A stretch of 64,000 bases of DNA from NCBI GenBank assembly GCA_041659225.1, contig JBAZYR010000004.1:9867-73866 (forward strand). Reading direction: 5' to 3'. The position numbers were made by a program, and so were the translations under genes. This document shows, piece after piece, positions 2,785 through 62,740 of the stretch (position 1 is its first letter; each line of letters begins with the position of its first letter). Under the pieces are notes generated by a model. That model searched no databases and had not been told where the DNA came from. It saw only the letters and a list, made by a program, of their open reading frames with translations. This stretch comes from Candidatus Staskawiczbacteria bacterium. GTDB taxonomy: Bacteria; Patescibacteriota; Minisyncoccia; Minisyncoccales; Staskawiczbacteraceae.

Positions 2785-2807
2785 TAATTTTAAGTTTAAA
2801 TTATCTC

Positions 2808-3338: not shown

Positions 3339-3340
3339 TA

Positions 3341-3976
3341 ATGATTAAGAATAACTATCCCGGTAAATTTATTGTGTTCGAAGGTCTCGATGGCTCAGGC
3401 CAAAGTACGCAAGCGGGGAAGTTATTCGATTTTCTTAATTTACCGGAACAGAAACTTAAATTCGGGCATACCGGAGTTCATCTGACCAAAGAACCTACGT
3501 CGAGTTTAATCGGGGGATTAATAAGGAGCCAGCTGACGCACGAATGGAAATCTTCACAGAACTGCCTCCAACTGCTATTTTCTGCCGACAGGGCGAATCA
3601 TTTAGAAAAAGAAATAATCCCCTTGCTCGAGCGTGGTATAACAGTTGTTTGCGACAGATATTTCTTTTCTACCATTGCTTACGGTTCGTTGGACATAAAA
3701 GACAGAGAGTGGCTTGTCAATTTAAATAAGAATTTCCTTTTTCCCGACATTACATTCTTGCTTAAGGTTTCTCCCCGAATCTGCATGGAGAGGATACAGA
3801 AGACGAGATATGAGATTAATCTTTTCGAAAGGGAAGAAATGCTGACGAGGGTTTGGGAAAATTTTGACCGGCTGGCCAAAGAATTTGAAAAAGTTCACGT
3901 AATACAAGGAGAAGGACCATTAGAAAAAATTCATCAAGAAATAGTCCAAATACTTACTAACAAATTAACTCAATAA
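3341..3976 (+). CDS. tmk: Thymidylate kinase
   Basis: P-loop FIVFEGLDGSGQSTQ and DRY-type motif CDRYFFS. Confidence 0.9.
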   Translation: MIKNNYPGKFIVFEGLDGSGQSTQAGKLFDFLNLPEQKLKFGHTGVHLTKEPTSSLIGGLIRSQLTHEWKSSQNCLQLLFSADRANHLEKEIIPLLERGITVVCDRYFFSTIAYGSLDIKDREWLVNLNKNFLFPDITFLLKVSPRICMERIQKTRYEINLFEREEMLTRVWENFDRLAKEFEKVHVIQGEGPLEKIHQEIVQILTNKLTQ

Positions 3977-17256: not shown

Positions 17257-17293
17257 ATGAATATTATCCCATTTTACGTGTTAAGATAGCATA

Positions 17294-17923
17294 ATGCAAT
17301 ATCCAAATTTTAATGAAGAACGAAAACTGCAGGGCAGGGGATTCGGAAACGTCGCCGGTTTGGACGAGGCCGGCCGAGGGCCGTTAGCCGGCCCCGTTGT
17401 GGCCGCTGCAGTTATTGTTAGGAGCAAAAGATCGGAGATATTCAAAATAGGGGTCCGAGATTCGAAAAAACTTTCTGCTCGCCAGAGAGATAAGCTATTT
17501 AGTATTTTGACAAGCCATAGCCAAGTTAGTTGGGGAGTGGGCATAGTTTCAGAAAAAGTAATAGATAAGATAAACATTTTGCAGGCAACGAAGCTAGCAA
17601 TGCAAAAAGCGGTTGATGTATTAAAAAAGAAAATATCTAAAGTAGACTTTTTAATACTCGACGGAAATTTTAGCATCGTTTCTCCAATCCCGCAAAGATC
17701 AATTATTAAAGCTGATATAAAGGTTTTTTCCTGCGCAGCCGCGAGCGTGATAGCCAAAGTTACCCGAGATAGGATCATGATCAAATACGACAAAAAATAT
17801 CCGGGATACGGATTTGCAAAGCATAAAGGGTATCCAACGTTAAAACACAGGGAGGCTATAAAAAGAATTGGGCCTTGTCATATCCACAGGAAATCATTTT
17901 TTGGTGTAAAAGAAAAGCCCTGA
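17294..17923 (+). CDS. rnhB: Ribonuclease HII
   Basis: GLDEAGRGPLAGPVVAAAV active-site motif. 209 aa. Confidence 0.9.
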   Translation: MQYPNFNEERKLQGRGFGNVAGLDEAGRGPLAGPVVAAAVIVRSKRSEIFKIGVRDSKKLSARQRDKLFSILTSHSQVSWGVGIVSEKVIDKINILQATKLAMQKAVDVLKKKISKVDFLILDGNFSIVSPIPQRSIIKADIKVFSCAAASVIAKVTRDRIMIKYDKKYPGYGFAKHKGYPTLKHREAIKRIGPCHIHRKSFFGVKEKP

Positions 17924-17976: not shown

Positions 17977-19347
17977 TTATCGGCTAACGACTGCGTCAGC
18001 CGGTTTGTTTGTGCTCGCAGCAACCTTTGGGGTCGCTGTGATATTAGGAGGTGCCTTGAGGCAATATGAGAAATTCATTGGAGCCTGACAGAGCTCGTTC
18101 ACCTTTCCGTCGTTCCAGACAAGAAGTGTTCTATTCCGGAAGAGGAAGGTCTTTTCAGCAATCCAGCGGAACTGGTCGCCTATAACTCCGGTCGCTATCG
18201 TTTTCTGTTGGACCTGAATCATGTTATTCAAGGGAATGTAGGGCCAATGTCGCGGCCCAACGTTGTCGCAGTTTGGCTTGTATTCACGTCCAATGTCGCT
18301 CGCCTCTATCCCTCGAAGGATTTCTTGGCTGCTGAATGAAACAACCATTCCTCCGGTGAGACAGGCAAGGGAACCGTCTTTTCCCCAATCCAGGCCATCG
18401 CATGTTTTGAGCAAAATAGGGATTTCCCAGATTCCTGGTTTGGTTCCTGGAACAAATCGGGTCGCAGGGATAGGTGCTCCGCGTTTGAATGACGCAATCG
18501 GCAAAGAAGTTGGGTCGCGGATTTCAATCGGACCCCAACCTATTTCGCTTTGATAGATGAACGCAATCAGCGGTCTGCCGGAAAGGTTTTTTGACCAGGT
18601 AGGAAAGCGGGCATTTCTCTTGATAGAGAACATTCGATGTACATCGCGTTCAGCCGCATATATTCCGCTTATCTTTAGCGACTGAGTTGTCCGGTGTTTC
18701 AGAAGGATCAGCTCCGCCGTGGGCTGCATTTGGAGATCCTGCCAGGTAGCTCGGATGGGGAAGGTTGGCGGGATATATGCTGTGTTCCCGTACACTTCCG
18801 GCACCCCTTTGTTACCTGGGCTTGGCATCACCACAATGGCATTGCAGAAGTCCGGCGCTACGGCGTAAAAAGGATATGCAGCGAAGTTCGTCGGCGTGCC
18901 GTTTACGTTCTGGTCCAATCCCGCGCCTTCTTCCATTAAAACCCATTTGATGTCGTATCGGGTCGTTTCGAAGGAAATCCATCGTCCATCAGAGGACACG
19001 TTCAGATTTCTCGTGTCTGCCGGTGGAGAAGAAGCGGCTGAGCCCTTCTTCGCGGTTGGTTTTCCTCGCTCATACGTCGTGTAGCTGGCCTCTCCGTCGG
19101 GGAGGACTTTCTTCCAAAGTTTGGATCTGTCGGACCAGAATAATGTTGAGCCGTCAACTGAGACCGCCACGGCTTCTTTGATTTGCGTGGCTTTGGTTCC
19201 AGTAGCCAGGCTCGCTTTATTCCCAGTGAAATCCTGGAAAAAAGCATTCTTCCCGTCCGAGTAGATAATTCCGCCCGTGAGGTCCTGGGCCTTTGCGGAC
19301 ATGGCGATTGACAGGAACGTCATCGCGATCACTAGGATTGATCTCAT
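17977..19347 (-). CDS. Hypothetical secreted protein, 456 aa (GC-richer islet)
   Basis: Signal peptide MRSILVIAMTFLSIAMSAKA. GGAGGTGA 3 nt before the ATG. A sample line counts 31/60 GC. Confidence 0.6.
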   Translation of the reverse strand: MRSILVIAMTFLSIAMSAKAQDLTGGIIYSDGKNAFFQDFTGNKASLATGTKATQIKEAVAVSVDGSTLFWSDRSKLWKKVLPDGEASYTTYERGKPTAKKGSAASSPPADTRNLNVSSDGRWISFETTRYDIKWVLMEEGAGLDQNVNGTPTNFAAYPFYAVAPDFCNAIVVMPSPGNKGVPEVYGNTAYIPPTFPIRATWQDLQMQPTAELILLKHRTTQSLKISGIYAAERDVHRMFSIKRNARFPTWSKNLSGRPLIAFIYQSEIGWGPIEIRDPTSLPIASFKRGAPIPATRFVPGTKPGIWEIPILLKTCDGLDWGKDGSLACLTGGMVVSFSSQEILRGIEASDIGREYKPNCDNVGPRHWPYIPLNNMIQVQQKTIATGVIGDQFRWIAEKTFLFRNRTLLVWNDGKVNELCQAPMNFSYCLKAPPNITATPKVAASTNKPADAVVSR

Positions 19348-19422
19348 CGGTCACCTCCATATATTTTGTCAAGGAGACTCTTGCGTTTTGACCCTCCACA
19401 TTAGAGGGGTGTGCTACCTATT

Positions 19423-26194: not shown

Positions 26195-26884
26195 GTGAAA
26201 GATTTTTCAAAGCTTGAAAAGCAGTTGGGAATAAAATTCAATAACCAAGATCTTTTAATCCAGGCATTCGTCCACAGATCTTACCTCAACGAGAATCCAG
26301 ATTTCAATTTAAAGAATAATGAAAGACTAGAATTCCTAGGAGACGCGGTGTTGGAGCTGGTTATAAGCGAGTATCTTTATGCTGAATATCCGGATAAGCC
26401 GGAAGGGGAGCTGACTAATTGGAGGGCGTCCTTGGTAAATGCGAAGATGTTAGCTGAAGTTGCTCAGGAAACAGAATTAGGTGAGTTCCTGCTTTTATCA
26501 AAAGGAGAAGCAAAAGAAAGCGGAAAAGCCCGTTACTATATCCTAGCCAACACTTTGGAAGCATTAATCGGTTCTATTTATCTTGACCTGGGCTACGAAG
26601 CCTGCGACCAGTTTATTAAAAAATACATTGTCGTAAAGCTGCCGAATATATTGGAGACTGGCCTTTACAAAGATGCTAAGTCGAGGTTCCAGGAAGAAGC
26701 CCAAGACAGGACAGGAGTAACTCCGACCTATAAAGTCCAGAAAGAGTGGGGGCCGGATCACGCCAAGCAGTTTACCGTCGGAGTATTTTTGAAGGATCAA
26801 TTAGTGGCTGAAGGCGATGGATCTTCAAAACAGGAAGCAGAAGGCGAAGCAGCTAAAAAAGCATTAGAAATTAAACATTGGTAG
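26195..26884 (+). CDS. rnc: Ribonuclease III
   Basis: ERLEFLGDAVLE signature and a C-terminal dsRBD. GTG start. Confidence 0.93.
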   Translation: MKDFSKLEKQLGIKFNNQDLLIQAFVHRSYLNENPDFNLKNNERLEFLGDAVLELVISEYLYAEYPDKPEGELTNWRASLVNAKMLAEVAQETELGEFLLLSKGEAKESGKARYYILANTLEALIGSIYLDLGYEACDQFIKKYIVVKLPNILETGLYKDAKSRFQEEAQDRTGVTPTYKVQKEWGPDHAKQFTVGVFLKDQLVAEGDGSSKQEAEGEAAKKALEIKHW

Positions 26885-27318: not shown

Positions 27319-27424
27319 AGTTATTTGACATTTTTCAAGATCATGATAGAAAGATGGAGTGTTCGTTTAAAACAGTCACACTCCACATTAACCAACTATA
27401 CGTTACCTGAAAGGAGGCTCGTCC

Positions 27425-28150
27425 ATGGTTCTGACCGATTTTAGAAAAGAAGATCTTCTGAGTATTGATCCAAATGATTTCACGGAGGTAGCGTTATCTC
27501 CGGATGAGATTTGGCATATTTTCACTACCCTAGGCGCTGTCTGGGTTTACGAGGGGGAACCAGATGCCAAAAAGCCGCATGCGGCTTTTACTTCGGGCAA
27601 ATGTTGCAACGGATATATCAGCTGTCGAAAAGTCCTTTGCTATCCGAATCTCTGCGAACTTCTAGCCGTTCAACATGTTAAAGCCTTGCGGCGTTTGGGT
27701 TGGATCGAAAAAGTCGATTGGGTTATAGGTTCCGTTGACAGCGTTGTCACTTGGTCCTATGAGGTCGCTCGAACGCTTCATGCAAGACATGGGTTCTGCG
27801 AAAAAGACCCAGCCGACCCAGAACAAAGGCGGATGATTTGGAAAGAAGAAATTCCGATAGGAGCCGAGGTTTTGTACACCGAAGATCTAGTTATCGCGAA
27901 AGAGACCTCTGAGGTTGCAAAGTCGGCAGTAAGGAAAAGTAATCCGCATCGTCCGATTAATTTCTATCCGTTTATCAGCGCTTTGGTTCATAGACCGGCT
28001 AGTACCGGCCCCTTAGCTACTAACGGGGTTGTCCCTCTCATTTTCCGGGTTTTCCAGACCTGGGAACGGCTTGATTGTCCCTACTGCCATGTTTGCTCCG
28101 CCCGGTTGCATCCCGAGAGAGATTGGGCCAGGCTTCTTGGCCGGGTGTGA
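27425..28150 (+). CDS. Hypothetical protein, possibly phosphoribosyltransferase-like with a degenerate PRPP loop (GC-richer islet)
   Basis: AGGAGG 7 nt before the ATG. Layout resembles PyrE-like PRTases (HAAFTSGK.., VDWVIGS.., AEVLYTEDLVIAKETS) but the PRPP loop is not canonical. A sample line counts 33/60 GC. Confidence 0.45.
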   Translation: MVLTDFRKEDLLSIDPNDFTEVALSPDEIWHIFTTLGAVWVYEGEPDAKKPHAAFTSGKCCNGYISCRKVLCYPNLCELLAVQHVKALRRLGWIEKVDWVIGSVDSVVTWSYEVARTLHARHGFCEKDPADPEQRRMIWKEEIPIGAEVLYTEDLVIAKETSEVAKSAVRKSNPHRPINFYPFISALVHRPASTGPLATNGVVPLIFRVFQTWERLDCPYCHVCSARLHPERDWARLLGRV

Positions 28151-28160
28151 AGTGTATATA

Positions 28161-28199
28161 AAAAAAGTAGCCGGCTACACAGGTGTAGTTCGGCTTTTT
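28161..28199. terminator. Bidirectional hairpin terminator between convergent genes
   Basis: A-run, AGCCGGCTACAC / GTGTAGTTCGGCT stem, T-run. Confidence 0.6.
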
Positions 28200-28810
28200 C
28201 ATTTCACGGTTCTTGCTCGTTGGTAGTAACCAATGAGGCTTTTTATTGCATAATAAATTACCACGATTAAAAGGGTGTCGATGAGATAGACTGCAGAACT
28301 GAATAAATCGCAGTTAAGACATTTCTCCAGCGCGAGAACAATAAGCCATATGGCTACCAGAAAAAACTGGATAAACATTTTAATTCTGCCGTTTTGTCCG
28401 GCCTTTACGCTGCGTCCTGTGAGAAGGTCATAGAGCCAGCGACCCATTAAGCCGCATTCCAGCAGGATAACGAATCCTGTGAGGATGATGGTGGGCGGAG
28501 TTAAGTAAAAAAACCTATGTTCGGTTCTGTTCAAATACCATACCAATAGCAGCAGGACAGTGCAGATGAAGATTTTATCTCTGAACCTATCGATTGCTTC
28601 TCCGAAGGCGCTTTGAATTTTGAAATATCGTGCCACCTTGCCATCAAGGAAATCAGAAAGGCCGATTAAGATAACTAGGGTTACAATTTCCCATATCCTG
28701 TATGGGTTTGTTGCGGCCAAGAAAATCAGCCCGAAGGTGAGAAACAAGCCAGAAACCGTGATTATGTTCGCTAAGTTTTTAAAGAGCCAGGATTCCCGAG
28801 TCTGAATCAT
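28199..28810 (-). CDS. CDP-alcohol phosphatidyltransferase family protein
   Basis: DFLDGKVARYFKIQSAFGEAIDRFRDK matches DGx2ARx8Gx3Dx3D. GGGAGGA 7 nt before the ATG. Confidence 0.85.
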   Translation of the reverse strand: MIQTRESWLFKNLANIITVSGLFLTFGLIFLAATNPYRIWEIVTLVILIGLSDFLDGKVARYFKIQSAFGEAIDRFRDKIFICTVLLLLVWYLNRTEHRFFYLTPPTIILTGFVILLECGLMGRWLYDLLTGRSVKAGQNGRIKMFIQFFLVAIWLIVLALEKCLNCDLFSSAVYLIDTLLIVVIYYAIKSLIGYYQRARTVK

Positions 28811-28878
28811 TTTTTGTCCTCCCTATACAAGCCAGTGATTCGTATACAAGATTATACTACAAATTTTTTAATAGTAAA

Positions 28879-33676: not shown

Positions 33677-33734
33677 GACTTTCACTCATTTTAATGATTA
33701 AAAGAATATGGTCCTTTGAAAAGGAGGCAATGAA

Positions 33735-35270
33735 ATGTTAATGATCGAAGAAACACATAATTGGCCGTTAGCCAGATTTATTGTTCCCGCTTTTCCTAAG
33801 GTCAACATCTTCAGCCGTTATGCGGGGAGGATGACATCTCTGGGCATTATTATGGTCGCAACTGCCGCCAACAAGCTCTGGGGTTGGCGGGTAGAAGTTA
33901 TTGATGAAAATAATTACAAGGGTCCGCGCGATGAAGCCGGCTTGCCAGATCACGCAAAACTGCAGCAAGAAAGGCCCGCCTTAGTTGTCGGCTTTTATTG
34001 CGGGCTTACTTCCACAATGGAGCGCGCATTCGATTTGGCTGATTTTTATCACCGTGCAGGGGCGATAGTTCTCGCCGGTGGTTGGCACGTCCATTATTGT
34101 CCGGAAGAGGCGTTGGATAATAACATCGACGTGGTGGTTCACGGCGATGGGGAAATTGTTATTAAACAGCTTCTCGCGGCAATACGCGACGGAGCACCAA
34201 TTGATGGAATTCCGGGTATTTCATTTTCGCTTGACGGACGAAAGTTCACCAACCCTCCTGCAATGCTAGAAGTGGCGTGCCTGGATGAGTTACCTTATCC
34301 CGACTTCGGCCTGTTGCGTCACGTGAGAAAAATCAGGAATTATCCGATTGGCCGAATCCGCGGTTGCGGAAAGAACTGTGAGTTTTGCAGCGTTAAAGGA
34401 AAAGCTCGCTGGGCTAGCGCTGAATATCTTTTCGGGACAGTTAATTGGCTGGTGGAAACGCGAGGTGCCCGCAACTTCTTTATTGTTGACGATCGGCTCG
34501 AAGAGGATCTCGAAGGAACTATGGAGTTTTTCAGACTCATTAGGGAGAAATACGGGAATAAACTTCATTTCACCGTTCAAATACGGTTAGAGGCTGCAAA
34601 GAACATAGAGTTTCTCGAAAACATGAAAGCCGCCGGCGTAGACGTGTCCTGTGTTGGCTATGAATCACCCGTTGATGAAGACTTGCGAAGTATGCATAAA
34701 GGTTATTTGGCTGCCAACATGCTGGAGTGGACTAGAATCCTGCGCCGCTATTTCTGGGTTCATGGAATGTTCATCTTCGGCTATCCTTCGAAAGATAAAA
34801 TCTCGAAGTTCGGTGCTCTGGAGCTAAAAAAGCGCTTCCAGTCCTTTATCAGGAAAGCTCACCTCGATAGCATCCAGGTATTGCATCCGGTTCCCTTAGT
34901 CGGAACGGCTTTAAGAAAGCGGCTTCAAGACGAGAATCGAATTATTCCGCAGGAATTAGTATCTTTGAGAAGATACGACGGAAGCTTCGTTTGCTTTCGT
35001 CCCATTGGCATGACCATAGAGGATTTGCAGGTAATACCCTTCGAGATAATGCGCTGGTTCTACAGCCCGTTTAGTTTTTTACGAATTCCGCTGCGGACGA
35101 TCATTTTTCCGTTCGATTTTCTCATTCGTGGCTGGTGGAGATGGCATCGCGACTGGCTGCGCGATATTGTAAAGTATGGAGGTCACCTTCTTGTCCAAAG
35201 ATGGAGCAAGCAAGAAGGAAATCAGGGATTTCTACGGGAGTTGAAAAGATTTGGTTATCATATTCATTGA
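33735..35270 (+). CDS. B12-binding-domain radical SAM protein (class B), function unknown (GC-richer islet)
   Basis: N-terminal cobalamin-binding-like Rossmann segment (VVGFYCGLTS...VVVHGDGE), CGKNCEFC = CxxxCxxC. AAGGAGG 7 nt before the ATG. No SPASM-type C-terminal cysteines. Confidence 0.85.
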   Translation: MLMIEETHNWPLARFIVPAFPKVNIFSRYAGRMTSLGIIMVATAANKLWGWRVEVIDENNYKGPRDEAGLPDHAKLQQERPALVVGFYCGLTSTMERAFDLADFYHRAGAIVLAGGWHVHYCPEEALDNNIDVVVHGDGEIVIKQLLAAIRDGAPIDGIPGISFSLDGRKFTNPPAMLEVACLDELPYPDFGLLRHVRKIRNYPIGRIRGCGKNCEFCSVKGKARWASAEYLFGTVNWLVETRGARNFFIVDDRLEEDLEGTMEFFRLIREKYGNKLHFTVQIRLEAAKNIEFLENMKAAGVDVSCVGYESPVDEDLRSMHKGYLAANMLEWTRILRRYFWVHGMFIFGYPSKDKISKFGALELKKRFQSFIRKAHLDSIQVLHPVPLVGTALRKRLQDENRIIPQELVSLRRYDGSFVCFRPIGMTIEDLQVIPFEIMRWFYSPFSFLRIPLRTIIFPFDFLIRGWWRWHRDWLRDIVKYGGHLLVQRWSKQEGNQGFLRELKRFGYHIH

Positions 35271-35368: not shown

Positions 35369-36289
35369 ATGATTTACGACCTTGCTATTATCGGTGGAGG
35401 CGCAGGAGGTATAACTGCGGCTATTTATGCTGCGCGCCAACGAATGGAAACTATCCTTATTACCAAAAGATTCGGCGGGCAGATGGGAAATAAAGCCACG
35501 GAGGTTTGTAACTACCCCGGTTTTCCCAGAATAGGTGGCGCCGAATAAATCAAAAAGTTTGTTGCTCATTTAAACGCTCAAAAGTGTGTTGAGATAAAAT
35601 TTGCTGAAGTCAGGAAAATATCTAAAGAAGATCATTTTGTTGTTATCACGACTGAGGGGGAGGAAATAGCCAGCCGCTCCGTGATTATTGCGACCGGCGC
35701 TGACCCTAGGCCGTTAGAAATTCCAGGCGAGAAAGAATTTCTTGGTAAAGGATTGAGTTATTGCGTTACCTGCGACGGTCCTTTGTTTAAAAATAAAGCC
35801 GTGGCGATAATCGGGGGAGGTAACGCCGGACTTGAAGCAGGTATATTTATGACCAACTATGCAAAGAAAATATATATCTTAGAAAATGGACCGGAGATCC
35901 GGGCCGAGCAAGCTAACCAAGATGAAGTAAAAGAATTAAAAAAGATTGAAGTATTGATGAATGTTTCTGTTAAGGAAATAAAAGGAGGAAAGTTAGTGAG
36001 TTCGTTAATTTATGAAGATTCAATAACGAAGGAAGAAAAAGCTCTCGATGTCCAAGGGGTTTTTGTAGAGATTGGAAGCCAGCCGGCAACTTCTTTGGCA
36101 AAAGGTTTAGTCGATTTCAACGACAAAGATGAAATAAAAGTGGAGTTTGAAACGTTTCAAACCAAAACCCCCGGTTTGTTTGCGGTAGGGGACGCGAACG
36201 CAGGAAAGTACAAACAGATAGTAACTGCTGCCGGCGAAGGTTGCAAGGCAGCACTCGCCGCGTATGAGTATATTAAAAAACAGAAATAA
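35369..36289 (+). pseudogene. trxB: Thioredoxin-disulfide reductase interrupted by one in-frame TAA (35546-35548)
   Basis: DLAIIGGGAGG, NYPGFP, CVTC redox site, GGGNAG, AVGDA. The two tracked ORFs share a frame, and the 132 nt between them are open and TrxB-like. Confidence 0.8.
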
Positions 36290-41886: not shown

Positions 41887-41951
41887 ATAGTGTTCTAGAT
41901 CGTTTACAACTGTTGAAATACTTATAGACTTTCTCGGAAGGAGATTATGCG

Positions 41952-42635
41952 ATGGAAAAAATGACTAGGGATCAGTTGGTTAATATTCTATGTATCTTAC
42001 AGCGTATGCTCTTGTGTGAAGAAGTTGGGTTTGACTACGTACCCGCTGCTGTCGCTCGTGCGATTATAAATGGAGACCACGAAAAGTTCGCTGTTAACTT
42101 CGTTGAGCTTTTAGCAGGTGGTGGAAAATTCATCCCCACCGACCTAGAAGTTCGGACGGCACCATTCGATCCCGCTGAGTTCATCGGCCCTGGCTGGACA
42201 TTGTGGAAGGGTCGTAACGGCTTAGAGGGTGAGGAAGAATGCGATGCCCAGTCACCAAACTTAGTTGCGGTTAATCTCGAAAGGTGCGATTTCCTTTCGT
42301 GTTTGGATAAGGAAGAAAGCCCGATTACTGGAGAAGTCAGACTCTCTCGCTTCCGGGCTACCGGAAGAATACTATACGGCGTTACGGTAGCCATGGGAAT
42401 ATGGCAGGATTATCAATCCTCCGAGGATAAGGAAGAAAGCATCCTCGAGAAACTATATCAGAAATATGGTATTACTCATATCGACTTCCTAGGCACGGTT
42501 CTTCGGTCCCCGGGTGGCTATCGGTACGTATTTTGTTTCTGCCGTGGTGCTGATGATCAGTGGCGTTGGGGTTGTAACGGACTCATGTGCGATTGTGCTA
42601 AACAACACCTCGCCGCGGTTTCTCAGAAAATATAG
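41952..42635 (+). CDS. Hypothetical protein, 227 aa (GC-richer islet)
   Basis: GGAAGGAGA upstream of the ATG. No family recognised. Internal 16-nt exact repeat GGATAAGGAAGAAAGC at 42305 and 42425. Confidence 0.5.
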   Translation: MEKMTRDQLVNILCILQRMLLCEEVGFDYVPAAVARAIINGDHEKFAVNFVELLAGGGKFIPTDLEVRTAPFDPAEFIGPGWTLWKGRNGLEGEEECDAQSPNLVAVNLERCDFLSCLDKEESPITGEVRLSRFRATGRILYGVTVAMGIWQDYQSSEDKEESILEKLYQKYGITHIDFLGTVLRSPGGYRYVFCFCRGADDQWRWGCNGLMCDCAKQHLAAVSQKI

Positions 42636-51075: not shown

Positions 51076-51840
51076 TTATTTTGGTTGCTCTTGCTCCAGT
51101 TTTCTAAACGCTTTTATAATTCCATCCATTCTGCCGTCCATTATTCCTTCAATATCGTGCCATGATTTTCCGATTCTATGGTCGGTAATCCTATCCTGAG
51201 GAAAATTATATGTCCTCATTTTTTCAGCACGCTTGGCCCAGCCGATTTGCTCGTTTCTGGCTCCTGAAATCTGTGATTGCTCTTCGGCAATTTTTCGTTC
51301 CAGGAGCTTGGCGGATAAAATTGATAGCGCGCTTTCTTTATTTTGCATTTGATTTCTTTCGGATTGCGAGGTAACTACTAAACCGGTCGGGATATGCACG
51401 ATTCTTATCGCGCTTTCAGTTTTATTAACATACTGGCCTCCGGGGCCTGATGCCTTGAATGTTGTAATTTTGAGATCGCTGGGGTTTATAATAAACTCCG
51501 TCTTTTTAGGTTTAGGGAGAATAGCAACAGTTATAGTAGAGGTGTGGACTCTGCCGGATTTTTCGGTTTTAGGTATCCTTTGAACCCGGTGTACCCCAGC
51601 CTCATTTTTCATGTCGTCGTAAATACCGGCACCGTTTAATTCGAAAATAATTTCTTTATAGCCTCCTAAGTCGCTTTGATTGGAATCTAGGATTTTCTGG
51701 CCCCAGCCTTTGGATTGCCCGAATTTAGAATACATTCTAAATAAATCACGGGCAAATAAACCGGCTTCGTCTCCGCCGGTTCCAGCGCGGATTTCAACTA
51801 TGATTGCATCTATGTCCTTTTTAGGTAATTGTTCTTGCAT
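51076..51840 (-). CDS. prfA: Peptide chain release factor 1 lacking N-terminal domain 1 (254 aa)
   Basis: [38 protein letters not shown] (PxT-type), [16 protein letters not shown] (GGQ). An in-frame TAG lies 15 nt upstream of the ATG. Confidence 0.85.
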
Positions 51841-55324: not shown

Positions 55325-55352
55325 TTGACATTATCTTTTATTCGAATAAAAT
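55325..55352 (+). promoter_or_regulatory. Candidate promoter upstream of the 16S rRNA gene
   Basis: TTGACA, 16-nt spacer, TAAAAT. A hairpin plus T6 (55436-55480) lies between it and the 16S, so the assignment is uncertain. Confidence 0.4.
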
Positions 55353-55521: not shown

Positions 55522-55550
55522 TTTAGTTTTTTAAAGTTGTTTCGAATAAG
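55522..55550 (+). promoter_or_regulatory. 5' strand of the pre-16S processing stem
   Basis: TTTAGTTTTTTAAAGTTGTTTCGAATAAG is complementary to 57982-58010 at 27 of 29 positions. Confidence 0.8.
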
Positions 55551-56445
55551 CTACTAATACTCAGCGTATTAGATATTTTTTTTGAGAGTTTGATCCTAGC
55601 TCAGGGTGAACGCTGGTAACGTGGATAAGGCATGCAAGTCGAACGGGCTGTAGCAATACAGTCAGTGGCGAACGGGTTAGTAACACGTAGGTACCAACCT
55701 CCGAGATGAGAATAACCCATCGAAAGATGGGCTAATACTCAATAGTCCCACTCCGCAAGGAAATGGGTAAAGGTTCGCAAGAGCCGCTCAGAGATGGGCC
55801 TGCGGCCTATCAGCTTGTTGGCAGGGTAAAAGCCTACCAAGGCTATGACGGGTAGGGGGCGTGAGAGCGTGTCCCCCAACAATGGCACTGCGACACGGGC
55901 CATACTCCTACGGGAGGCTGCAGTCGAGAATCTTCCACAATGGGCGAAAGCCTGATGGAGCGACGTTACGTGAATGAAGAAGCCCTTCGGGGTGTAAAAT
56001 TCTTTTTTAGGGGAGGAAGTTGCCTTCGGGTAACTGACAGTACCTTAAGAATAAGGGGATCCTAATTCTGTGCCAGCAGGAGCGGTAATACAGAATCCCC
56101 GAGCGTTACCCGGAATTACTGGGCGTAAAGGGTCCGTAGGTGGTTAAGATAGTCTTTGGTTAAAACTCATCGGCTCAACCTTTGAGCTGCCGAAGATACT
56201 TCTTAACTCGAGGACGTTAGAGGCTAACGGAACCGACGGTGTAGGGGTGAAATCCGTTGATATCGTCGGGAACACCAAAAGCGAAGGCAGTTAGCTGGGA
56301 CGATCCTGACACTGAGGGACGAAAGCGTGGGGATCAAAAAGGATTAGATACCCTTGTAGTCCACGCTGTAAACGATGACCACTAGCTATTGGCAGTGTCG
56401 ACCCTGTCGGTGGCGAAGCTAACGCGTTAAGTGATCCGCCTGGGA

Positions 56446-56477
<32 letters not shown>

Positions 56478-56611
56478 AGACGGGGACTCACACAAGCGGT
56501 GGACCATGTGGCTCAATTCGACAACAAACGAAGAACCTTACCAGGGCTTGAAATTCCGTTGAAATCCCGATGAAAGTTGGGACCCCCACAAGGCAGCGGA
56601 ACAGGTACTGC

Positions 56612-57328
56612 ATGGTTGATGCTTTACTTTCTTATTCACAATCTGAAAGAAAGCACACGACCCCTTCTCGAGTAATCGAGATTGCAAAACCAGCTCATAA
56701 CGGTGAAACCTTCAAGTTTTATGTTAAAATTAATATACAAACTAATGGTAATACCGTGGGAAGTATAAGTACTAATTTTTGTAATTTTTTCTCTAAAATA
56801 GAAGATTCGTATATCTTAGGTCTTTGGTGCGCGGATAGCTATTGGTGGTCTAGTTCAGTCGGATTAAGCAATACCGATGACAAATTAATTGGTGAATTCA
56901 GAAAATTTTTGAAGAAAATTTTCCCTGAAGAAAGAATCAAATTTAATCGAAACCATATTTTCGTCAATAGTCGTCCGCTACTCAGAGAATTTATATCGGC
57001 AAAGGCGAGTTTAGACAGGTTGGAAGACCCTGATATAATTAAAGCATATTTCGCCGGACGGTTTGACGGTGATGGCTCGATTGATAAAAACCTAAGAAAT
57101 GATTGCAGGATAGTTTATGGGAGAAAGGAGGAAGCTGAAATGGATAAGAAACTTCTTGGGAAGATTAGAATTAGTAACACTAAAATTTATTACTATAAAG
57201 GAGCAAGAACATTTTGCCTTTATATTTCTAGATACCAGGCAAAGGAATTCCTTGGAAATATTTATCCTTATTCAATAAAATTACAGAAATTAGTACTTGT
57301 ACCCCGTAGAGACTTAGTTTTCCACTAA
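56612..57328 (+). CDS. LAGLIDADG-family homing endonuclease (two-motif, monomeric type)
   Basis: ILGLWCADSYWW and KAYFAGRFDGDGSI motifs. The only upstream in-frame ATG outside pure rRNA sequence is the ATG of the exon GCATGG at the junction. Confidence 0.8.
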   Translation: MVDALLSYSQSERKHTTPSRVIEIAKPAHNGETFKFYVKINIQTNGNTVGSISTNFCNFFSKIEDSYILGLWCADSYWWSSSVGLSNTDDKLIGEFRKFLKKIFPEERIKFNRNHIFVNSRPLLREFISAKASLDRLEDPDIIKAYFAGRFDGDGSIDKNLRNDCRIVYGRKEEAEMDKKLLGKIRISNTKIYYYKGARTFCLYISRYQAKEFLGNIYPYSIKLQKLVLVPRRDLVFH

Positions 57329-57442
57329 CAAAGGACGGAGAACTTAATAGCTTACCATGCTATTACACGCTGGTCCCCTAATCCCGCTTTGCGGGACGGG
57401 TGATGGTATAGTCCATACTTTTGGAAACAAGAGAACAATATG
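56618..57442 (+). mobile_element. Intervening sequence / intron-like insertion in 16S carrying a homing endonuclease gene
   Basis: Conserved GCATGGYTGTCGTCAGC is split as GCATGGTT | insert | GTCGTCAGC. The boundary is ambiguous by a few nt because ATGGT is repeated at both junctions. Confidence 0.8.
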
Positions 57443-57981
57443 GTCGTCAGCTCGTGTCTTGAGACGTACCGTTAATTCGGGTAACGAGCGCAACCCTTGT
57501 CTTATGTTTTATATGTCATAAGAGACTGCCCGGGATAACTGGGAGGAAGGTGAGGATGACGCCAAATCAGCATGGTCCTTTGATGCCCTGGGCCGCACAC
57601 GTGGTACAATGGCCGGTACAATGGGTTTGCCAACCCGAAAGGGGGAGCTAATCCCACCAAAACCGGTCTCAGTTCGGATTGAGGGCTGAAACCCGCCCTC
57701 ATGAAGCCGGAATCGCTAGTAATCGCCGATCAGCTACGCGGCGATGAATATGTTCCTGAGTCTTGTACTCACCGCCCGTCACGCCAAGCGAGCTGGGAAC
57801 AGCCGAAATTCCTCGCAAGGGGACTTAAGCTGGGCTCAGTAAGAGGGGCGAAGTCGTAACAAGGCACGGGTAGCGGAAGCTGCTCGTGGATCAATTTTTT
57901 TTATTTTTTTGTCGACTTAGGTTGAAATCGAAAATTTGGATTTCAACTTAAAAGCGTTTGGGGTGAATCGCTTGAAATTCA

Positions 57982-58010
57982 CCTATTCGAAACAACTTTA
58001 AGAAACTAAA
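57982..58010 (+). promoter_or_regulatory. 3' strand of the pre-16S processing stem
   Basis: CCTATTCGAAACAACTTTAAGAAACTAAA, complementary to 55522-55550. Confidence 0.8.
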
Positions 58011-58086
58011 CAAAGAATCCGGAACTGTTTTCGGGTTTTTTGTTTATATGCTTGAAAAGCTAGAGAAAAAAGGTAAGATGTAGTTA

Positions 58087-58380
58087 ATGATATGGAAATA
58101 TTTTTCTTATTTTCTTGTAGGATTTATAGGGTTTGCGATTGGACGAGTAGGGCATATTCTTGGGGGACAGGTTGCTTGGATTCCGCACCATTGGATATTC
58201 GGATTAATACTTCTGTCTGCCGGGTTAGTATGTTTACTCTTTAAGCGAGGTAGAAACATCGGATATTATCTTATATTTTTCGGCGCAGGTGTGTTTATAA
58301 GCGACTTTAGGGATTTCACGCTTGGAAGAGTGTGGGAATTGGATGATGTAACAATATTAAAATTTTGGGGAGTAGATTAA
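58087..58380 (+). CDS. Hypothetical small membrane protein between 16S and tRNA-Ala
   Basis: 97 aa with three hydrophobic helices. Confidence 0.5.
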   Translation: MIWKYFSYFLVGFIGFAIGRVGHILGGQVAWIPHHWIFGLILLSAGLVCLLFKRGRNIGYYLIFFGAGVFISDFRDFTLGRVWELDDVTILKFWGVD

Positions 58381-58388
58381 AATTTATT

Positions 58389-58460
58389 GGGCCCTTAGTT
58401 CAGTGGTAGAACGCCTCATTTGCAATGAGGAGATCACCGGTTCGAGTCCGGTAGGGTCCA
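58389..58460 (+). tRNA. tRNA-Ala (anticodon UGC)
   Basis: Acceptor GGGCCCT/AGGGTCC with the G3:U70 identity pair, anticodon loop TTTGCAA, T loop TTCGAGT. CCA not encoded. Confidence 0.9.
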
Positions 58461-58554
58461 CAATTTGGCGCAACATTTTGGACACAAGCAAGTTGTAAAA
58501 AGCCTGTTTTTGTTTGAAGTGTGGATAGTATTGACACGTGTTGCAGATTATTCA

Positions 58555-58563
58555 TGGTACAAT
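58555..58563 (+). promoter_or_regulatory. Extended -10 element TGGTACAAT placed for a leaderless transcript
   Basis: The -10 ends 6 nt before the A of the ATG at 58570. Confidence 0.4.
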
Positions 58564-58569
58564 GCAGTC

Positions 58570-61539
58570 ATGCGTATATATCCCATTTTATTCGTATTAG
58601 CCATCGTTGCCCTCTTGGTTGCCATCGGCATTCTTTTCAAGGTTATTCCTTGGATGCAACCTGCCTCCGTGCTTAACCCGACCTCCGTAATGCTTAATTT
58701 ATTGTTCAACGGAAACATGGATGATTCCTCCGGTCATGGAAACAACGCTGTCTGCTCCGGAACCTGTCCGTCATACCTGGCCAGCGGGGGTTTACTCGGT
58801 AGCGGTGCTTACTCTTTTGACGGCACTACCAACTATTTGGCCGTTGCCAATAATTCCAACATCAATCTTACTGACAATTTCAGCTTGACGGCCTGGGTTA
58901 AGACCAACTCTGATCCGGCGACTGATGAATGGCAGGGGATTTTGGTTAAAGGTACAAATGATAGCCAGCGGTCCTGGAGTCTTTACCTCCACTACAAAGC
59001 CGTGGAAATTCAATGGTTAAACGGCACTTGGCAATCTTTCAGCGCAGCCTCGGCAAACATTCAATCTAACCAATGGTATCAAATTGTTTACACTAAGAAC
59101 GGAGCCAATCAGGCGATTTATCTGAATGGCGTTCCTTTGTCGACCTCAGGCAGCTCTGCAACCATGATTGCCAATAATGATCCGCTGTATATCGGTGGCA
59201 ATGCCATTTATCCTGAGGAACGATTCAATGGCGTTATCGACAGCTTGCGGATCGTCAACCAGGTTCTTTCACCGGCCGAAGTAAGTACTCTTTATCAGGA
59301 GGACCAAACACAACCTCCTTCTGGCGATACCAATTGCGTTAAAGCAGACGTTAATACTAGTGGTGAAGTTGATAATTTTGACGTTCTTTTTGTTCGAGGC
59401 CAATTAAGGTGTGATATAGGTGCTGGTGCACCTAATTGTGTCAAAGCAGACGTTAATACTAGCGGTAAAGTTGATAATTTTGACGTTCTTTTTGTTCGAG
59501 GCCAAATGGGCTGCACCGTGCCGCAACAGTACTCCATTGTCGCCACGGCTGGCGCTGGTGGGACAATCGATCCTATTGGCACGGTCACTGTCAACTCAGG
59601 AGATACCAAGACCTTTGCTATTAGTCCTGATGCAACCCATCAAATAAACCAGGTGGTAGTTGATGGCCTCGAGAAAGGAGCAATTTCGACTTTCACTTTT
59701 TCCGATATAACTGTCAATCATACTATCAGCGCAAGTTTTAGTTCAGTACCCCAAACGCAGTTGAAGCCAATCGCTCGGTGGGACACCGTGCCTTACCAGA
59801 GGATCGATCCAGCTCACCCCTTGAATCTATCAGTAGTCGCTTTTTCAAAATATGGAATTAACCGTGTCGTCTTCAAGATAAGCGGCGGTGGTTATACCGG
59901 CCTAGACAAAACAGCAACCGCAATGTCGCTCAATCCCCAAACCGGAGTTTGGGAATACTGGGTGCCATTAACGGCCGCCGAATTCGATACTAACAGTGCC
60001 ATCACCGTCGAAGCTACCGTGTATGGAAACGATGGCGGAGTCAGAGACAAAAATACTAACGCTGCTGTTTACGGTTCCGGCCTTAGTCCCGTCACTTTGG
60101 TGGTCGTACCGCAGTCTAACGCCGACCAGTATCAGAGAGCTTATGCTTGGGTTGATAATACAAATGGAAACGATGGTGTCACTAATGCCGTGAGCACAAG
60201 CGTCAATGATCCCGGCGCAGGTAAATATTTCAAGACTATCAACGCGGCTGCCCGGGCCATCCAAACCTATCGTGGCGGTAACGCGGACGGCGCGATGATT
60301 TATGTAAAGAGCGGAACTTACAACACTGCCGGCAGCAACAGCGGGTTCGTTAGGGGCAGCAACGAGTGGCTGACCATTTCGGCAGCACCTGGTTTGGCGA
60401 GAACTGATGTCGTTATCACAGCTGCTAGTGGAATTTATAATATCGAGCGGGCACATGTCCAAGGCCTTACTCTGAGCAATACCTCGAATGGTGCAAGTGT
60501 GATCAAGAATTGTTATCCCGGAGCGAGTTGCGATCCAGCCAACGTTAAGGTCTGGATTGATAACTCTCACATACTTGGCATTGGCCGCTGGCCGGAGGGA
60601 TCTGCAAACGGCGGAATTTACACCGGGCCGGTCAACCCCGATATCCCTGAAGTTTATTGGACCGATAGCGAAGTCAATAAATCAAACTTTGGCGTTTACA
60701 CTCAAAATACGGTCTTGGTCCGGGGCTTGTACATTCACGAAATTAGCAATGATCCCTTCCAGGCGGCACCACTGGTTATTAATACCCGCGTCGACGATGT
60801 CCGCGGAAATTATTTAGACTCACTGGGTAACAAACAACCGCATGCCGATCTTTTCCAGCCCGGGGCAGACGCCGATAATTTTATTATGTACAACGTACGC
60901 GCCACCGGCCTGCATTACGATATTTTTTGGAGTAATATCTATGCTGATGCCGCTACGGCTACCGGCATTGCCTTAGTTAATGTCTTCGCCGAGATTGACC
61001 TGGATCCTAATCCGGCCTATGGCAATAGGCCTGTTGTCTTCGGCGGGATTCTCGGCCAGTACAATCATCTTTTAATGTGGCATAACACCTATATATGGGG
61101 GGCGGGATCCATCCCAAGCGATCATTTGCCTCTAGCGATTTATCTTACCAAAAGTTATCCGGGAAATTTTCGACAATATTCCGTCATCAATAGTTCCTTC
61201 CGGGGAAATTTGTTCGATGCGCTCGGAATCAACAATCTCGACAACGGCGAGCCTTGGTACCAAGAACCTTATCTGACAAACCACGGAGACGAATTTTTGG
61301 ACAACCATTTTGTAAACGTTAACCCGACCGGAGATTATTACCATGGTGCTGCTTACGGTTTAAGATACTCGTCCGGTGATCCGCAAATTAATCGGAATCT
61401 CCAGTCGCCAACAATCGGACAGCCATTGAGCGCCGGTTCACCCTTGGTTAATCGAGAGAATGTTCCTCCTGTACCTGCCGACGCCAATGGCAAAGCGCGG
61501 TCAACTACCGGAGCAACAATTGGGGCATTCGAGTTCTAG
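58570..61539 (+). CDS. Membrane-anchored surface protein: LamG/concanavalin-like lectin domain, two dockerin-like repeats, InlB-B-repeat-like domain, probable beta-helix C-terminal region
   Basis: TM anchor MRIYPILFVLAIVALLVAIGILF. LamG-like FDGTTNYLAV..FSLTAWVK..LYIGGN..FNGVIDSLRI. 2x NCVKADVNTSG(E/K)VDNFDVLFVRGQ. YSIVATAGAGGTIDP..TISASF. Confidence 0.8.
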   Translation: MRIYPILFVLAIVALLVAIGILFKVIPWMQPASVLNPTSVMLNLLFNGNMDDSSGHGNNAVCSGTCPSYLASGGLLGSGAYSFDGTTNYLAVANNSNINLTDNFSLTAWVKTNSDPATDEWQGILVKGTNDSQRSWSLYLHYKAVEIQWLNGTWQSFSAASANIQSNQWYQIVYTKNGANQAIYLNGVPLSTSGSSATMIANNDPLYIGGNAIYPEERFNGVIDSLRIVNQVLSPAEVSTLYQEDQTQPPSGDTNCVKADVNTSGEVDNFDVLFVRGQLRCDIGAGAPNCVKADVNTSGKVDNFDVLFVRGQMGCTVPQQYSIVATAGAGGTIDPIGTVTVNSGDTKTFAISPDATHQINQVVVDGLEKGAISTFTFSDITVNHTISASFSSVPQTQLKPIARWDTVPYQRIDPAHPLNLSVVAFSKYGINRVVFKISGGGYTGLDKTATAMSLNPQTGVWEYWVPLTAAEFDTNSAITVEATVYGNDGGVRDKNTNAAVYGSGLSPVTLVVVPQSNADQYQRAYAWVDNTNGNDGVTNAVSTSVNDPGAGKYFKTINAAARAIQTYRGGNADGAMIYVKSGTYNTAGSNSGFVRGSNEWLTISAAPGLARTDVVITAASGIYNIERAHVQGLTLSNTSNGASVIKNCYPGASCDPANVKVWIDNSHILGIGRWPEGSANGGIYTGPVNPDIPEVYWTDSEVNKSNFGVYTQNTVLVRGLYIHEISNDPFQAAPLVINTRVDDVRGNYLDSLGNKQPHADLFQPGADADNFIMYNVRATGLHYDIFWSNIYADAATATGIALVNVFAEIDLDPNPAYGNRPVVFGGILGQYNHLLMWHNTYIWGAGSIPSDHLPLAIYLTKSYPGNFRQYSVINSSFRGNLFDALGINNLDNGEPWYQEPYLTNHGDEFLDNHFVNVNPTGDYYHGAAYGLRYSSGDPQINRNLQSPTIGQPLSAGSPLVNRENVPPVPADANGKARSTTGATIGAFEF
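59332..59507 (+). repeat. Two near-identical 74-nt direct repeats with 102-nt period encoding dockerin/EF-hand-like segments
   Basis: Copies at 59332-59405 and 59434-59507 differ at only a few positions. Confidence 0.85.
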
Positions 61540-61556
61540 TTTCAGATCTAGCGAAG

Positions 61557-61582
61557 CCCGAGATATATACCTCGGGTTTTTT
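61557..61582 (+). terminator. Rho-independent terminator after the LamG protein gene
   Basis: CCCGAG-atatatac-CTCGGG followed by TTTTTT. Confidence 0.75.
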
Positions 61583-61675
61583 GTTTGACAACTTATCATA
61601 TCTATTGTAGTAATAAAATAGTACATTTTATTCCCAAACTGATATCTAATTACGCAAGCTTAGAAAGGAGCTGTG

Positions 61676-62740
61676 ATGAGTGAATCTCTACACGAGGGTG
61701 CGATGACCGCAATGGTAACGCCTTTTACGGATCATTCCCGAATTGATTGGAACGGATTTGCTAAGAATATTCAATTCCAAAGGTCTCAAGGGATTCGCTG
61801 TATCGTTCCCGTCGGAACGACTGGCGAATCGCCCACGATTACGCCGACCGAACATCGCGATTTGATTCATGCCGCGATTAGCTGCACGCGGGGAACAGGC
61901 ATGGATATTCTCCCCGGTTGTGGGTCAAACTCGACCGAGGAGGCGATGGATTATATTGAAGTCGCTAACCGGCTTGGCTGTCGCGGAGCTCTGCTTGTGG
62001 ATCCGTATTATAACGGGCCGTCGTCGATCGAAATTCGCGATGAATATTATGGGGTGCTCGCCGTCAATAATCAGAATCCTAACTTTTTGCTTGTTCCATA
62101 CATAATCCCGGGACGAACTGGTTGTTCGCTTGCGCCCGAGGATTTGGTACAGCTGGCCTTGAATTATCCTCATAGCTTCCGGGCCGTTAAAGAAGCGACC
62201 GGTGATCTTAACCGAATGCTACGTACCCGAAGCCTGTTGGTGGCCTCTGGGATTCGCGACTTCCAGATTATTTCGGGCGACGACGACAAAACTGCTGAGA
62301 TGATTACCTCCGACGTTCTTTCCTGCGGGGTTATCTCTGTCACTTCTAATATCGCTCCGGCTGCCGTCCAACAGATGTGCATGCTGTTACTCCGCGGGGG
62401 CGAGAACGAAGCCTTGGCTATACGCAACCAGCTAGCACCTTTGTTCAAGGTGGTTACATTTCTAGCCGATCGATTCATAAAGGGTGGGGCGACGGTTACA
62501 GATAAGTTCCGGAACCCGCTTCCTGTGAAGATTATGATGGATGTACTCGGAATGCCTGCTGGCTCATGCCGTAGGCCTTTGGGTCGGATGACCGCTTCTG
62601 GTATCGGAATTTTGATGCAAGCTCTGCAGACTGTGTGGAAAGAAAGCCCTTGGATATTAAGACCCATCGAAGAGTTCTACGGCGTCGACATCCAATCTCG
62701 CATTAACGATCATGAACTTTGGGAAAAACATCAGTATTAA
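61676..62740 (+). CDS. DapA/NAL-family class I aldolase, 4-hydroxy-tetrahydrodipicolinate synthase-like (GC-richer islet)
   Basis: VPVGTTGESPT, DPYYNGPS, FRAVKEATGD (Schiff-base Lys context). AAAGGAG 5 nt before the ATG. About 60 aa longer than typical DapA. Confidence 0.75.
   Translation: MSESLHEGAMTAMVTPFTDHSRIDWNGFAKNIQFQRSQGIRCIVPVGTTGESPTITPTEHRDLIHAAISCTRGTGMDILPGCGSNSTEEAMDYIEVANRLGCRGALLVDPYYNGPSSIEIRDEYYGVLAVNNQNPNFLLVPYIIPGRTGCSLAPEDLVQLALNYPHSFRAVKEATGDLNRMLRTRSLLVASGIRDFQIISGDDDKTAEMITSDVLSCGVISVTSNIAPAAVQQMCMLLLRGGENEALAIRNQLAPLFKVVTFLADRFIKGGATVTDKFRNPLPVKIMMDVLGMPAGSCRRPLGRMTASGIGILMQALQTVWKESPWILRPIEEFYGVDIQSRINDHELWEKHQY

Follow-up and report, generated by a model that had tools for sequence, protein, structure and literature searches.

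The 16S rRNA gene and its 3' end

The DNA analysed here, called the window, is a stretch of 64,000 nucleotides from Candidatus Staskawiczbacteria bacterium (NCBI GenBank assembly GCA_041659225.1, contig JBAZYR010000004.1, positions 9,867 to 73,866 of the forward strand). It contains a 16S rRNA gene whose 3' tail lacks CCUCC, the core of the anti-Shine-Dalgarno motif (anti-SD). The organism, a groundwater bacterium with a small genome, belongs to Parcubacteria, within Patescibacteria or the candidate phyla radiation (CPR). The nearest 16S sequences are those of Paceibacterota, Staskawicz- and Nealsonbacteria, and proteins of the window are 100% identical to ones named Ca. Staskawiczbacteria at NCBI (GCA_041664665.1). 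The features of the locus, in window coordinates, are as follows.

55325-55352, forward: promoter-like site TTGACA-16-TAAAAT upstream of 16S (consensus scan, 11/12 matches; a pattern match only)
55523-55547, forward: 5' strand of the pre-16S processing stem (cofolding of the flanks, 25 consecutive pairs)
55578-57901, forward: 16S rRNA gene (Rfam RF00177, 1267.5 bits, model positions 1-1533)
56583-57419, forward: 837-nt intron-like insertion in the 16S gene (Rfam alignment, 837 nt against 13 in the model, near positions 1017-1030)
57865-57888, forward: helix 45, CACGGGTAGC-GGAA-GCTGCTCGTG, 10 bp with a GGAA loop (Rfam alignment, also found as a 10-bp hairpin)
57888-57893, forward: the universal GGAUCA, 5' neighbour of the anti-SD in other bacteria (sequence and Rfam alignment)
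57894-57901, forward: AUUUUUUU, in the register of canonical CCUCCUU(A/U) and aligned to CCUCCUUu of the model; the conserved part of the tail
57902-57910, forward: variable A/U spacer UAUUUUUUU, differing in length and sequence among relatives
57911-57916, forward: GTCGAC box, a conserved 3' trailer element (comparison with the tails of relatives)
57917-57951, forward: trailer hairpin 1 (ViennaRNA fold of the trailer; relatives show hairpins at a similar position)
57985-58009, forward: 3' strand of the processing stem, pairing with 55523-55547 over 25 bp
58007-58046, forward: terminator-like hairpin with a U run, downstream of the 16S transcription unit (fold prediction)

The gene is a bona fide bacterial 16S. 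It reaches 1267 bits overall against the Rfam model of the bacterial small-subunit rRNA and 257 bits with its 3' part alone, and both helix 45 and GGAUCA align at high posterior probability. Directly 5' of helix 45 lies AAGTCGTAACAAGG (57851-57864), and directly 3' of GGATCA lies ATTTTTTTTATTTTTTTG (57894-57911). After GGAUCA the window has AUUUUUUU and the model has CCUCCUUU; over the wider alignment GGAUCAAUUUUUUU stands against GGAUcACCUCCUUu, with the posterior probability mark '*' at every position. The tail beyond helix 45 is thus AUUUUUUUUAUUU, and these roughly 13 nt are devoid of the CCUCC core. CCTCC, CTCCT and CCTCT do not occur anywhere in 57850-58400, and so neither up to the processing stem nor beyond it, and the sole CCTCC inside the gene is internal, at 55698. 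The initial annotation had described helix 45, GGATCA and a non-canonical tail with no CCTCC before the processing stem, and the Rfam alignment bears out its coordinates and sequence. The stem, whose 3' strand that annotation had placed at about 57982, is also real. It is likely a substrate of RNase III, whose gene is found at 26195-26884.

The length of the gene, 2,324 nt, is due to the 837 inserted nucleotides. The insertion carries a LAGLIDADG open reading frame (ORF) from 56570 or 56612 to 57328 (Pfam LAGLIDADG_3) and has a weak group I intron match in Rfam (19 bits, E=0.043). In relatives, up to four LAGLIDADG-type ORFs occur per 16S gene (L174, L175). The Rfam search found no 23S gene after the 16S in the window, and the 16S gene is not linked to one here. 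The terminator-like hairpin is followed by a conserved 97-aa ORF (58052-58380), which is 60% identical in L174, and then by tRNA-Ala.

The tail in a second assembly and in relatives

An independent assembly of the same organism is available as a 785-kb contig at ENA (L129; ERZ27249449, k141_522868). Its tail is identical to that of the window. The two sequences differ by three single-nucleotide polymorphisms in 19.5 kb (56379, 62246 and 62773), one inside the 16S gene and none in the tail. An assembly error is thereby dismissed, as two independent assemblies agree. The wider possibility of an artefact includes a misassembled 3' end, a hidden 3' exon with CCUCC, or a second rrs with a normal tail. 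It draws on the error-prone nature of rRNA regions in metagenome-assembled genomes, on the introns that lie very near the 16S 3' end in the relatives L174 and L176, and on a few single-base differences between the window and public records. It is opposed by the second assembly, by the unbroken course of the tail from helix 45 and GGAUCA up to the processing stem, and by the same architecture in relatives chosen without regard to the tail. There is one rrs copy in the window, and the 785-kb contig matches the intron-encoded LAGLIDADG protein at only one place. An artefact of any of these kinds is scarcely credible.

Two sets of relatives are available. The first was collected by a pattern demanding no C at +1 to +5 after GGAUCA, and this sample of tails is biased because the pattern excludes C from the CCUCC positions. 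The pattern yielded 120 loci, about 40 of which are eukaryotic 18S/ITS1 contaminants. It gave about 75 further Patescibacteria with A/U tails, including the cultured Minisyncoccus archaeiphilus, whose tail is UUUAUUUAUAUUUU. The second, unbiased set consists of the closest rpsB homologues on long contigs (L174 and L176, 71-74% identity), selected with the tail ignored. Their 16S exons are 89-94% identical to those of the window and their tails read GGATCA-ATTTTTTTATATTTTTTT-GTCGAC and GGATCA-ATTTTTTTATTTATTTTT-GTCGAC. Alignment to related CPR 16S sequences, proposed in the initial annotation as a check, gives A/U tails in both sets. Judged from these sequences, anti-SD loss is ancient and common to the lineage.

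The L174 and L176 genes have a further peculiarity. An intron (L174, about 16250-17030; L176, about 17085-17340) splits them between AAGTCGT and AACAAGG, just before helix 45. This is the site of primer 1492R, and standard primers and the anchor pattern both miss genes of this type.

The pattern search also returned material of other origin. The roughly 40 loci beginning with GGATCATTA were considered as bacterial anti-SD losses and rejected, being eukaryotic 18S/ITS1. Such contigs occur in many 'bacterial' species-representative assemblies (L003, L005, L009, L010, L017, L018 and others). One identical A/T-rich ITS1 sequence, presumably from yeast, turns up across unrelated genera, and because of this recurrence the loci are regarded as contamination. 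In another group (L059, L065, L006, L027, L024) the 16S is closest to the present Parcubacteria lineage and the records say Omnitrophota, Saccharibacteria or Gastranaerophilales. These bins are probably mislabelled or mis-binned.

Constraint on the non-CCUCC tails

The tails of 76 distinct Patescibacteria sequences fall into a U-rich clade of 49 and a second clade of 27. In the U-rich clade, U occupies +2, +3, +6 and +7 after GGAUCA in 90-94% of the distinct tails, and A or U occupies +1, +4, +5 and +8, giving the pattern WUUWWUUW. The canonical CCUCCUU(A/U) register is kept and each C is replaced. From +9 onward A and U are about equal and conservation is gone. The comparison suggests a mature 16S 3' end near 57901-57902. 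The second clade has a nearly invariant 9-nt tail, AUUAAACUA, after GGAUCA in its 27 distinct sequences (L001, L013, L053, L068 and others). This tail is no anti-SD, and yet its near invariance marks it as being under strong constraint.

Both clades also have a GTCGA-like box 10-56 nt after GGATCA, found in 44 of the 49 U-clade tails and 21 of the 27 AUUAAACUA-clade tails, and in L174 and L176 as well. No pairing partner of the GTCGAC box was found in the 5' leader. The box could be a processing signal.

Leaders and start regions of the core genes

The names given in the initial annotation to the core genes are upheld (nusG, rplK, gatB, dnaE, thrS, rpsP, ftsZ, rpsB, ppsA and a SecE-like ORF). 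An exact-protein look-up of rpsP matched no record. The leaders of all of these are A/T-rich and SD-less, as had been described. At -10 to -1 the leaders contain 43-57% A, about 33% T and 15-20% G+C, and a localised motif is absent.

The strength of an SD was taken as the free energy (dG) of the leader against the canonical anti-SD, with a cut-off of -8 kcal/mol or below. At this cut-off 2 of 46 native-GC genes (GC denoting G+C content) pass at first sight, one of them at a false start. After correction about 1 of 46 remains, no more than expected by chance. In L174 and L176 an SD is lacking from all 30 genes that flank 16S, and by energy the SD frequency in relatives is near background (3.1% against 3.9%, and 7.8% against 5.2%). 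SD enrichment is accordingly not seen upstream of the native-GC genes, and an accessory minority of 7-11% stands above chance.

The false start concerns a thioredoxin reductase (TrxR)-like gene (35369-36289). The apparent SD 'GGGGGAGG' before a GTG at 35681 is rejected, as it arises from a premature stop in TrxR; the true start is at 35369 and has an A/T leader. The window has A at 35547 and the public record JBAYKI010000003.1 has T, the single difference in 7.5 kb. The A turns Leu60 (TTA) into a TAA stop and so creates the false start.

The start region is the least structured part of the mRNA by 40-nt folding energies. For 40-nt windows the minimum free energy averages -2.0 kcal/mol at the start and falls to -5.4 at +100 (p=8e-7). 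Genes were also said to abut or overlap the previous stop, and 13 of 46 same-strand junctions indeed measure 15 nt or less, with 2 overlaps.

A second possibility is that initiation is mainly leaderless, with promoters directly before the start codons. TATAAT-like words are among the most enriched leader 5-mers, and a -10-like box lies at -14 to -10 before dnaE and the genes at 42791, 53992 and 25691. The ORF starting at 58087, the 97-aa ORF downstream of 16S, has a promoter-like TTGAAA-16-TAAGAT that ends 7 nt before the ATG, and its mRNA may be leaderless. The enrichment of TATAAT-like words is, however, explicable by A/T richness and upstream TAA stop codons. Many genes lie within operons, with the short junctions given above, and a radical-SAM gene described below has a clear 5' untranslated region (UTR) of 20-40 nt. 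The geometry of a -10 box ending about 6-8 nt before the start codon fits only 3 or 4 of the 28 genes with an upstream gap of at least 40 nt. As the main mode of initiation the proposal is therefore unsupported and was set aside as very improbable.

A third possibility, raised speculatively in the initial annotation, is that the U-rich tail is a replacement anti-SD which pairs with A- or purine-rich leaders, by A-U pairs and by G·U pairs with leftover GGAGG. In the leaders A peaks locally at -9 to -5 (a fraction of 0.46-0.57), and the hybridisation energy of the native tail over sliding mRNA windows has its minimum at -12 to -8. A level of -3.45 kcal/mol is reached by 39% of leaders and by 10-14% of control windows; the strongest single example, at -8.4 kcal/mol with the native tail, is the rpsP leader. 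The U at tail positions +2, +3, +6 and +7 is kept, the C-to-U changes retain G·U pairing potential with GGAGG, and residual SD boxes are in excess in the U-tail clade (7.3%) relative to the AUUAAACUA clade (2.1%).

The energies are nevertheless tiny. The minimum is shallow (mean -1.4 to -2.0 kcal/mol) and whole leaders average -2.9 kcal/mol where shuffled ones give -2.2. The hybridisation profile is also obtained with a scrambled tail of equal composition, so that the signal is one of general A-richness. An A-rich leader pattern of this kind is known in Bacteroidia, which do without tail pairing, and in other lineages with SD-independent initiation. In the covariation test the leaders of the AUUAAACUA clade show no enrichment in words complementary to that tail (9.2% against 6.5-7.8% in the U clade, p >= 0.47). 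The A found at +4 and +5 in many relatives would break the wobble with GGAGG, and the clade difference in residual boxes involves small numbers and is confounded by GC content. The proposed pairing thus gains no specific support, unlike the rest of that description, and only a slim chance is left to it. The idea itself is not new, T-rich tail and A-rich leader pairing ('A-T interaction') having been proposed for Flavobacteria by Lim et al. 2012 (PMC3457768).

Two further observations concern the translation genes of the window. At the rplK locus, the genes that come after rplK (2362-2784) are one of dCMP-deaminase type, tmk and one resembling thyX (2362-3976 in all); rplA-rplJ-rplL is not found there, and rplA is thus absent from its usual place after rplK. 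The gene for RF1 (prfA, 51076-51840, reverse strand) codes for only 254 aa. Its match to the RF1 profile begins at about position 101, and the N-terminal domain therefore seems to be lacking. RF1 has 255 and 280 aa in close relatives and 364 aa in Nealsonbacteria.

Residual Shine-Dalgarno boxes

The absence of SD noted in the initial annotation stands for the housekeeping genes but is not uniform. Six accessory genes of the window (about 11%) have textbook, canonical SD boxes 5-13 nt before the start, mostly in the extended form GAAAGGAGG.

27409-27417, forward: GAAAGGAGG, upstream of a gene for a 241-aa hypothetical protein (27425-28150, GC 0.49), 7 nt from its ATG; dG -11.6 kcal/mol
33718-33727, forward: GAAAAGGAGG, within the short 5' UTR of the gene for a B12-binding radical-SAM protein (33741-35270; 33735 is an alternative start); dG -11.6
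19354-19358, reverse: GGAGG(TGA), upstream of a gene for a 456-aa hypothetical protein (17977-19347, GC 0.52), 6 nt from its ATG; dG -10.6
28817-28824, reverse: AGGGAGGA, before a CDP-alcohol phosphatidyltransferase gene (28199-28810); dG -11.9
41936-41944, forward: GGAAGGAGA, before a 227-aa hypothetical (41952-42635, GC 0.48); dG -8.8
61662-61670, forward: AGAAAGGAG, 5 nt before a DHDPS-family gene (61676-62740, GC 0.51) in a lineage-specific island

GC tends to be higher in the SD-bearing genes (Mann-Whitney p=0.004, Fisher p=0.007). Further examples of residual SD are purC-, purQ- and pyrE-like genes in Minisyncoccus and Staskawiczbacteria loci. The island comprises tRNA-Ala, a 1,024-aa laminin-G/dockerin protein (GC 0.48), DHDPS (GC 0.51) and the 197-aa ORF h197. 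It covers 58389-62740 in the window and reaches about 63460 by L129. It is inserted between h97 and ychF and is absent from the syntenic site in L174, and horizontal acquisition of this island, which adjoins a tRNA gene, is probable. The SD box of DHDPS is accounted for in this way, as the DHDPS block is an insertion relative to L174.

The B12/radical-SAM family is widespread in Patescibacteria. Its box is kept in 64% (dG <= -8) or 82% (dG <= -6) of 22 homologous loci, whereas the neighbouring genes (n=142) have an SD in 7% and 10%, respectively (p=4e-11). The loci (33690-33740 in the window; L131-L155, L122, L178) have in common a promoter of the form TTGACA-17-TAnAAT, a GYYCUUU motif where transcription starts, and a UTR of 20-40 nt. 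No Rfam family of known riboswitches was found in these leaders. The high GC of the gene was considered as proof of horizontal transfer and rejected, since the homologues likewise exceed their host loci in GC.

Comparison with known systems

The trait itself is already published for this bacterial group and is not new. Tsurumaki et al. 2022 (RNA 28:1041, PMC9297842) found no CCTCCT in about half of the 16S genes of Parcubacteria, the motif-detection rate being 48%. According to the same study the anti-SD-less lineages coincide with the uL1-lacking group and an SD helix is probably not formed. The window resembles these Parcubacteria in its group, in the lack of CCTCCT, in the absence of rplA after rplK, and in rRNA insertions with homing-endonuclease ORFs. 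The trait described here is the same as that reported for the uL1-lacking subgroup. A replacement motif, the WUUWWUUW and AUUAAACUA tails, the GTCGAC box and the minority of SD-keeping genes are not in that study.

Two surveys describe comparable taxa. A 2024 PLoS One survey (PMC10783764) places Ca. Campbellbacteria, Wolfebacteria, SR1 and Peribacter in its category iv, 'SD-scarce organisms lacking CCUCC'. The list of Amin et al. 2018 (PMC6107228) comprises 128 taxa without anti-SD, which are also without SD and have only 'AAAA'-type upstream motifs. Staskawiczbacteria are not named in the consulted text of the surveys. The window agrees with the CCUCC-less taxa described there in its tail and in the lack of SD enrichment. 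Both surveys conclude that SD is simply absent, whereas here a small but significant subset of genes has a well-placed SD. A 2026 review of the phylum does not mention anti-SD loss.

Lim et al. 2012 (PMC3457768) describe genomes without an anti-SD in insect endosymbionts, in haemotropic Mycoplasma and in some Flavobacteria, where CCTCC decays mainly by C-to-T or C-to-A and a TTTTT variant is included. The window has the same type of decay, an A-rich signal before the start, and, like those organisms, belongs to host-dependent bacteria with small genomes. In contrast, the symbionts are independent lineages whose tail varies within a group, while the tail pattern of Patescibacteria is conserved over a very deep clade.

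Bacteroidia (Jha et al. 2021; Naeem et al. 2026, PMC13000453) share SD-independent initiation, A-rich unstructured leaders and very few SD genes with the window. Unlike the window, they keep CCUCC, which is sequestered by bS21, bS18 and bS6 and used for rpsU autoregulation and rRNA processing. The window is not of this sequestered type, as CCUCC is absent, though its ribosome may work alike. Naeem et al. 2026 (PMC13000453) show that anti-SD-ablated ribosomes of Flavobacterium johnsoniae translate SD-less mRNAs but not an mRNA with a strong SD, and that rRNA processing is another process in which the anti-SD matters. Era binds GAUCA together with CCUCC, and most CPR have lost Era.

Interpretation

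Very probably, the anti-SD has been lost in this lineage, the core genes start independently of SD, and the residual boxes are relics or arrivals with accessory genes. The apparently single 16S of this Ca. Staskawiczbacteria has lost the CCUCC core, and the eight bases after GGAUCA keep the canonical register with every C turned into U or A (CCUCCUUU to AUUUUUUU). Since the core is gone, selection of start sites by SD:anti-SD pairing is impossible. On the core genes the 30S subunit would load on A/U-rich leaders of little structure, probably aided by A-rich enhancer positions and possibly by bS1, and the start codon would then be chosen by initiator tRNA and initiation factors. Translational coupling probably contributes at abutting or overlapping gene junctions. 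The residual boxes would have arrived or persisted with horizontally moving accessory genes and would not be read by the ribosome. Within this explanation, the missing CCUCC, its sharing by relatives, the SD-less core genes and the low structure around starts are observed, while the mode of initiation and the source of the residual boxes are inferred.

Several points weigh against this explanation. It takes for granted a mature 3' end near 57901-57902 and a single rrs copy, both of which are deduced. The tails are constrained and thus have some function, which the explanation leaves unnamed. In 205 genes pooled from the window and the confirmed anti-SD-less genomes of the U clade, AGGAG/GGAGG at a spacing of 4-11 occurs in 15 (7.3%), against 1.6% in the in-CDS (coding sequence) control (p=1.3e-6); at a spacing of 20-27 it occurs in 3 genes only. 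In the AUUAAACUA clade the motif stays at the background level (2 of 96 genes). The radical-SAM box is conserved in about 20 loci, and a dead relic should not be so conserved. Syntenic close relatives with the box should, by phylogenetic bracketing, also be anti-SD-less. Finally, GC is weak evidence of transfer for the radical-SAM gene, because high GC is a property of the gene family.

An alternative is that the residual boxes are functional, with GGAGG still read on a few mRNAs or serving another role, for instance as one side of a hairpin at the 5' end through which the mRNA is stabilised or regulated. The position-specific excess speaks for it, as does the retention of the radical-SAM box relative to neighbouring genes, including loci syntenic with the window (L155, L131, L132, L134). 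L155 carries the box in a syntenic setting (gap 85%, galU 76%), and the UTR of the window is 18/20 identical to that of L132, where the proteins are 68% identical. In 19 of 19 radical-SAM UTRs the box is predicted to pair in cis with an upstream CUUU(C)-type element.

The predicted box:CUUU hairpins are, however, weak, and their z-scores are mostly non-significant. Only in the genome of the window are a known tail and a radical-SAM leader linked; a second such genome was not found, including by tblastn of SD-bearing genes against 16S loci. On the Nealsonbacteria contigs the locus stops short of the 16S 3' exon, and P0008 is from an unrelated assembly. As about half of Parcubacteria keep CCUCC, many of the radical-SAM loci may come from lineages that keep the anti-SD. 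The gene also stands in differing contexts (e.g. L122), which is compatible with movement as a cassette, and in loci of the Nealsonbacteria type the box is degraded to GAAAGGAA. The poor translation of strong-SD mRNA by anti-SD-ablated ribosomes likewise tells against reading of the boxes. A functional role is therefore unlikely. The narrower claim, that GGAGG boxes, most clearly the one in the radical-SAM 5' UTR, are under selection in a CCUCC-less clade and still read, whether by A-U/G·U pairing with the U tail, by another factor or through a cis hairpin with CUUU, is distinctly unlikely.

Loss of the anti-SD with SD-independent initiation of core genes thus remains the preferred explanation. 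Existing accounts leave two things unexplained, the conservation of residual SD boxes and the constraint on tails without CCUCC.

Significance

Through the main finding a published pattern gains one further well-documented genome; alone, the finding changes little. It does provide a clean reference case, in which two assemblies agree, a 25-bp stem bounds the precursor, and relatives reveal the conserved tail positions. Gene callers and start prediction for CPR are affected, because SD-based models mis-score the starts. Primer design is affected as well, because close relatives have an intron inside the 1492R site. The point worth following is the combination of residual, position-specific SD boxes and conserved tails. 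It is directly testable, since Minisyncoccus archaeiphilus is cultured and has the same kind of tail. If the boxes are indeed read, anti-SD loss in CPR would have remodelled SD-type recognition and not abolished it.

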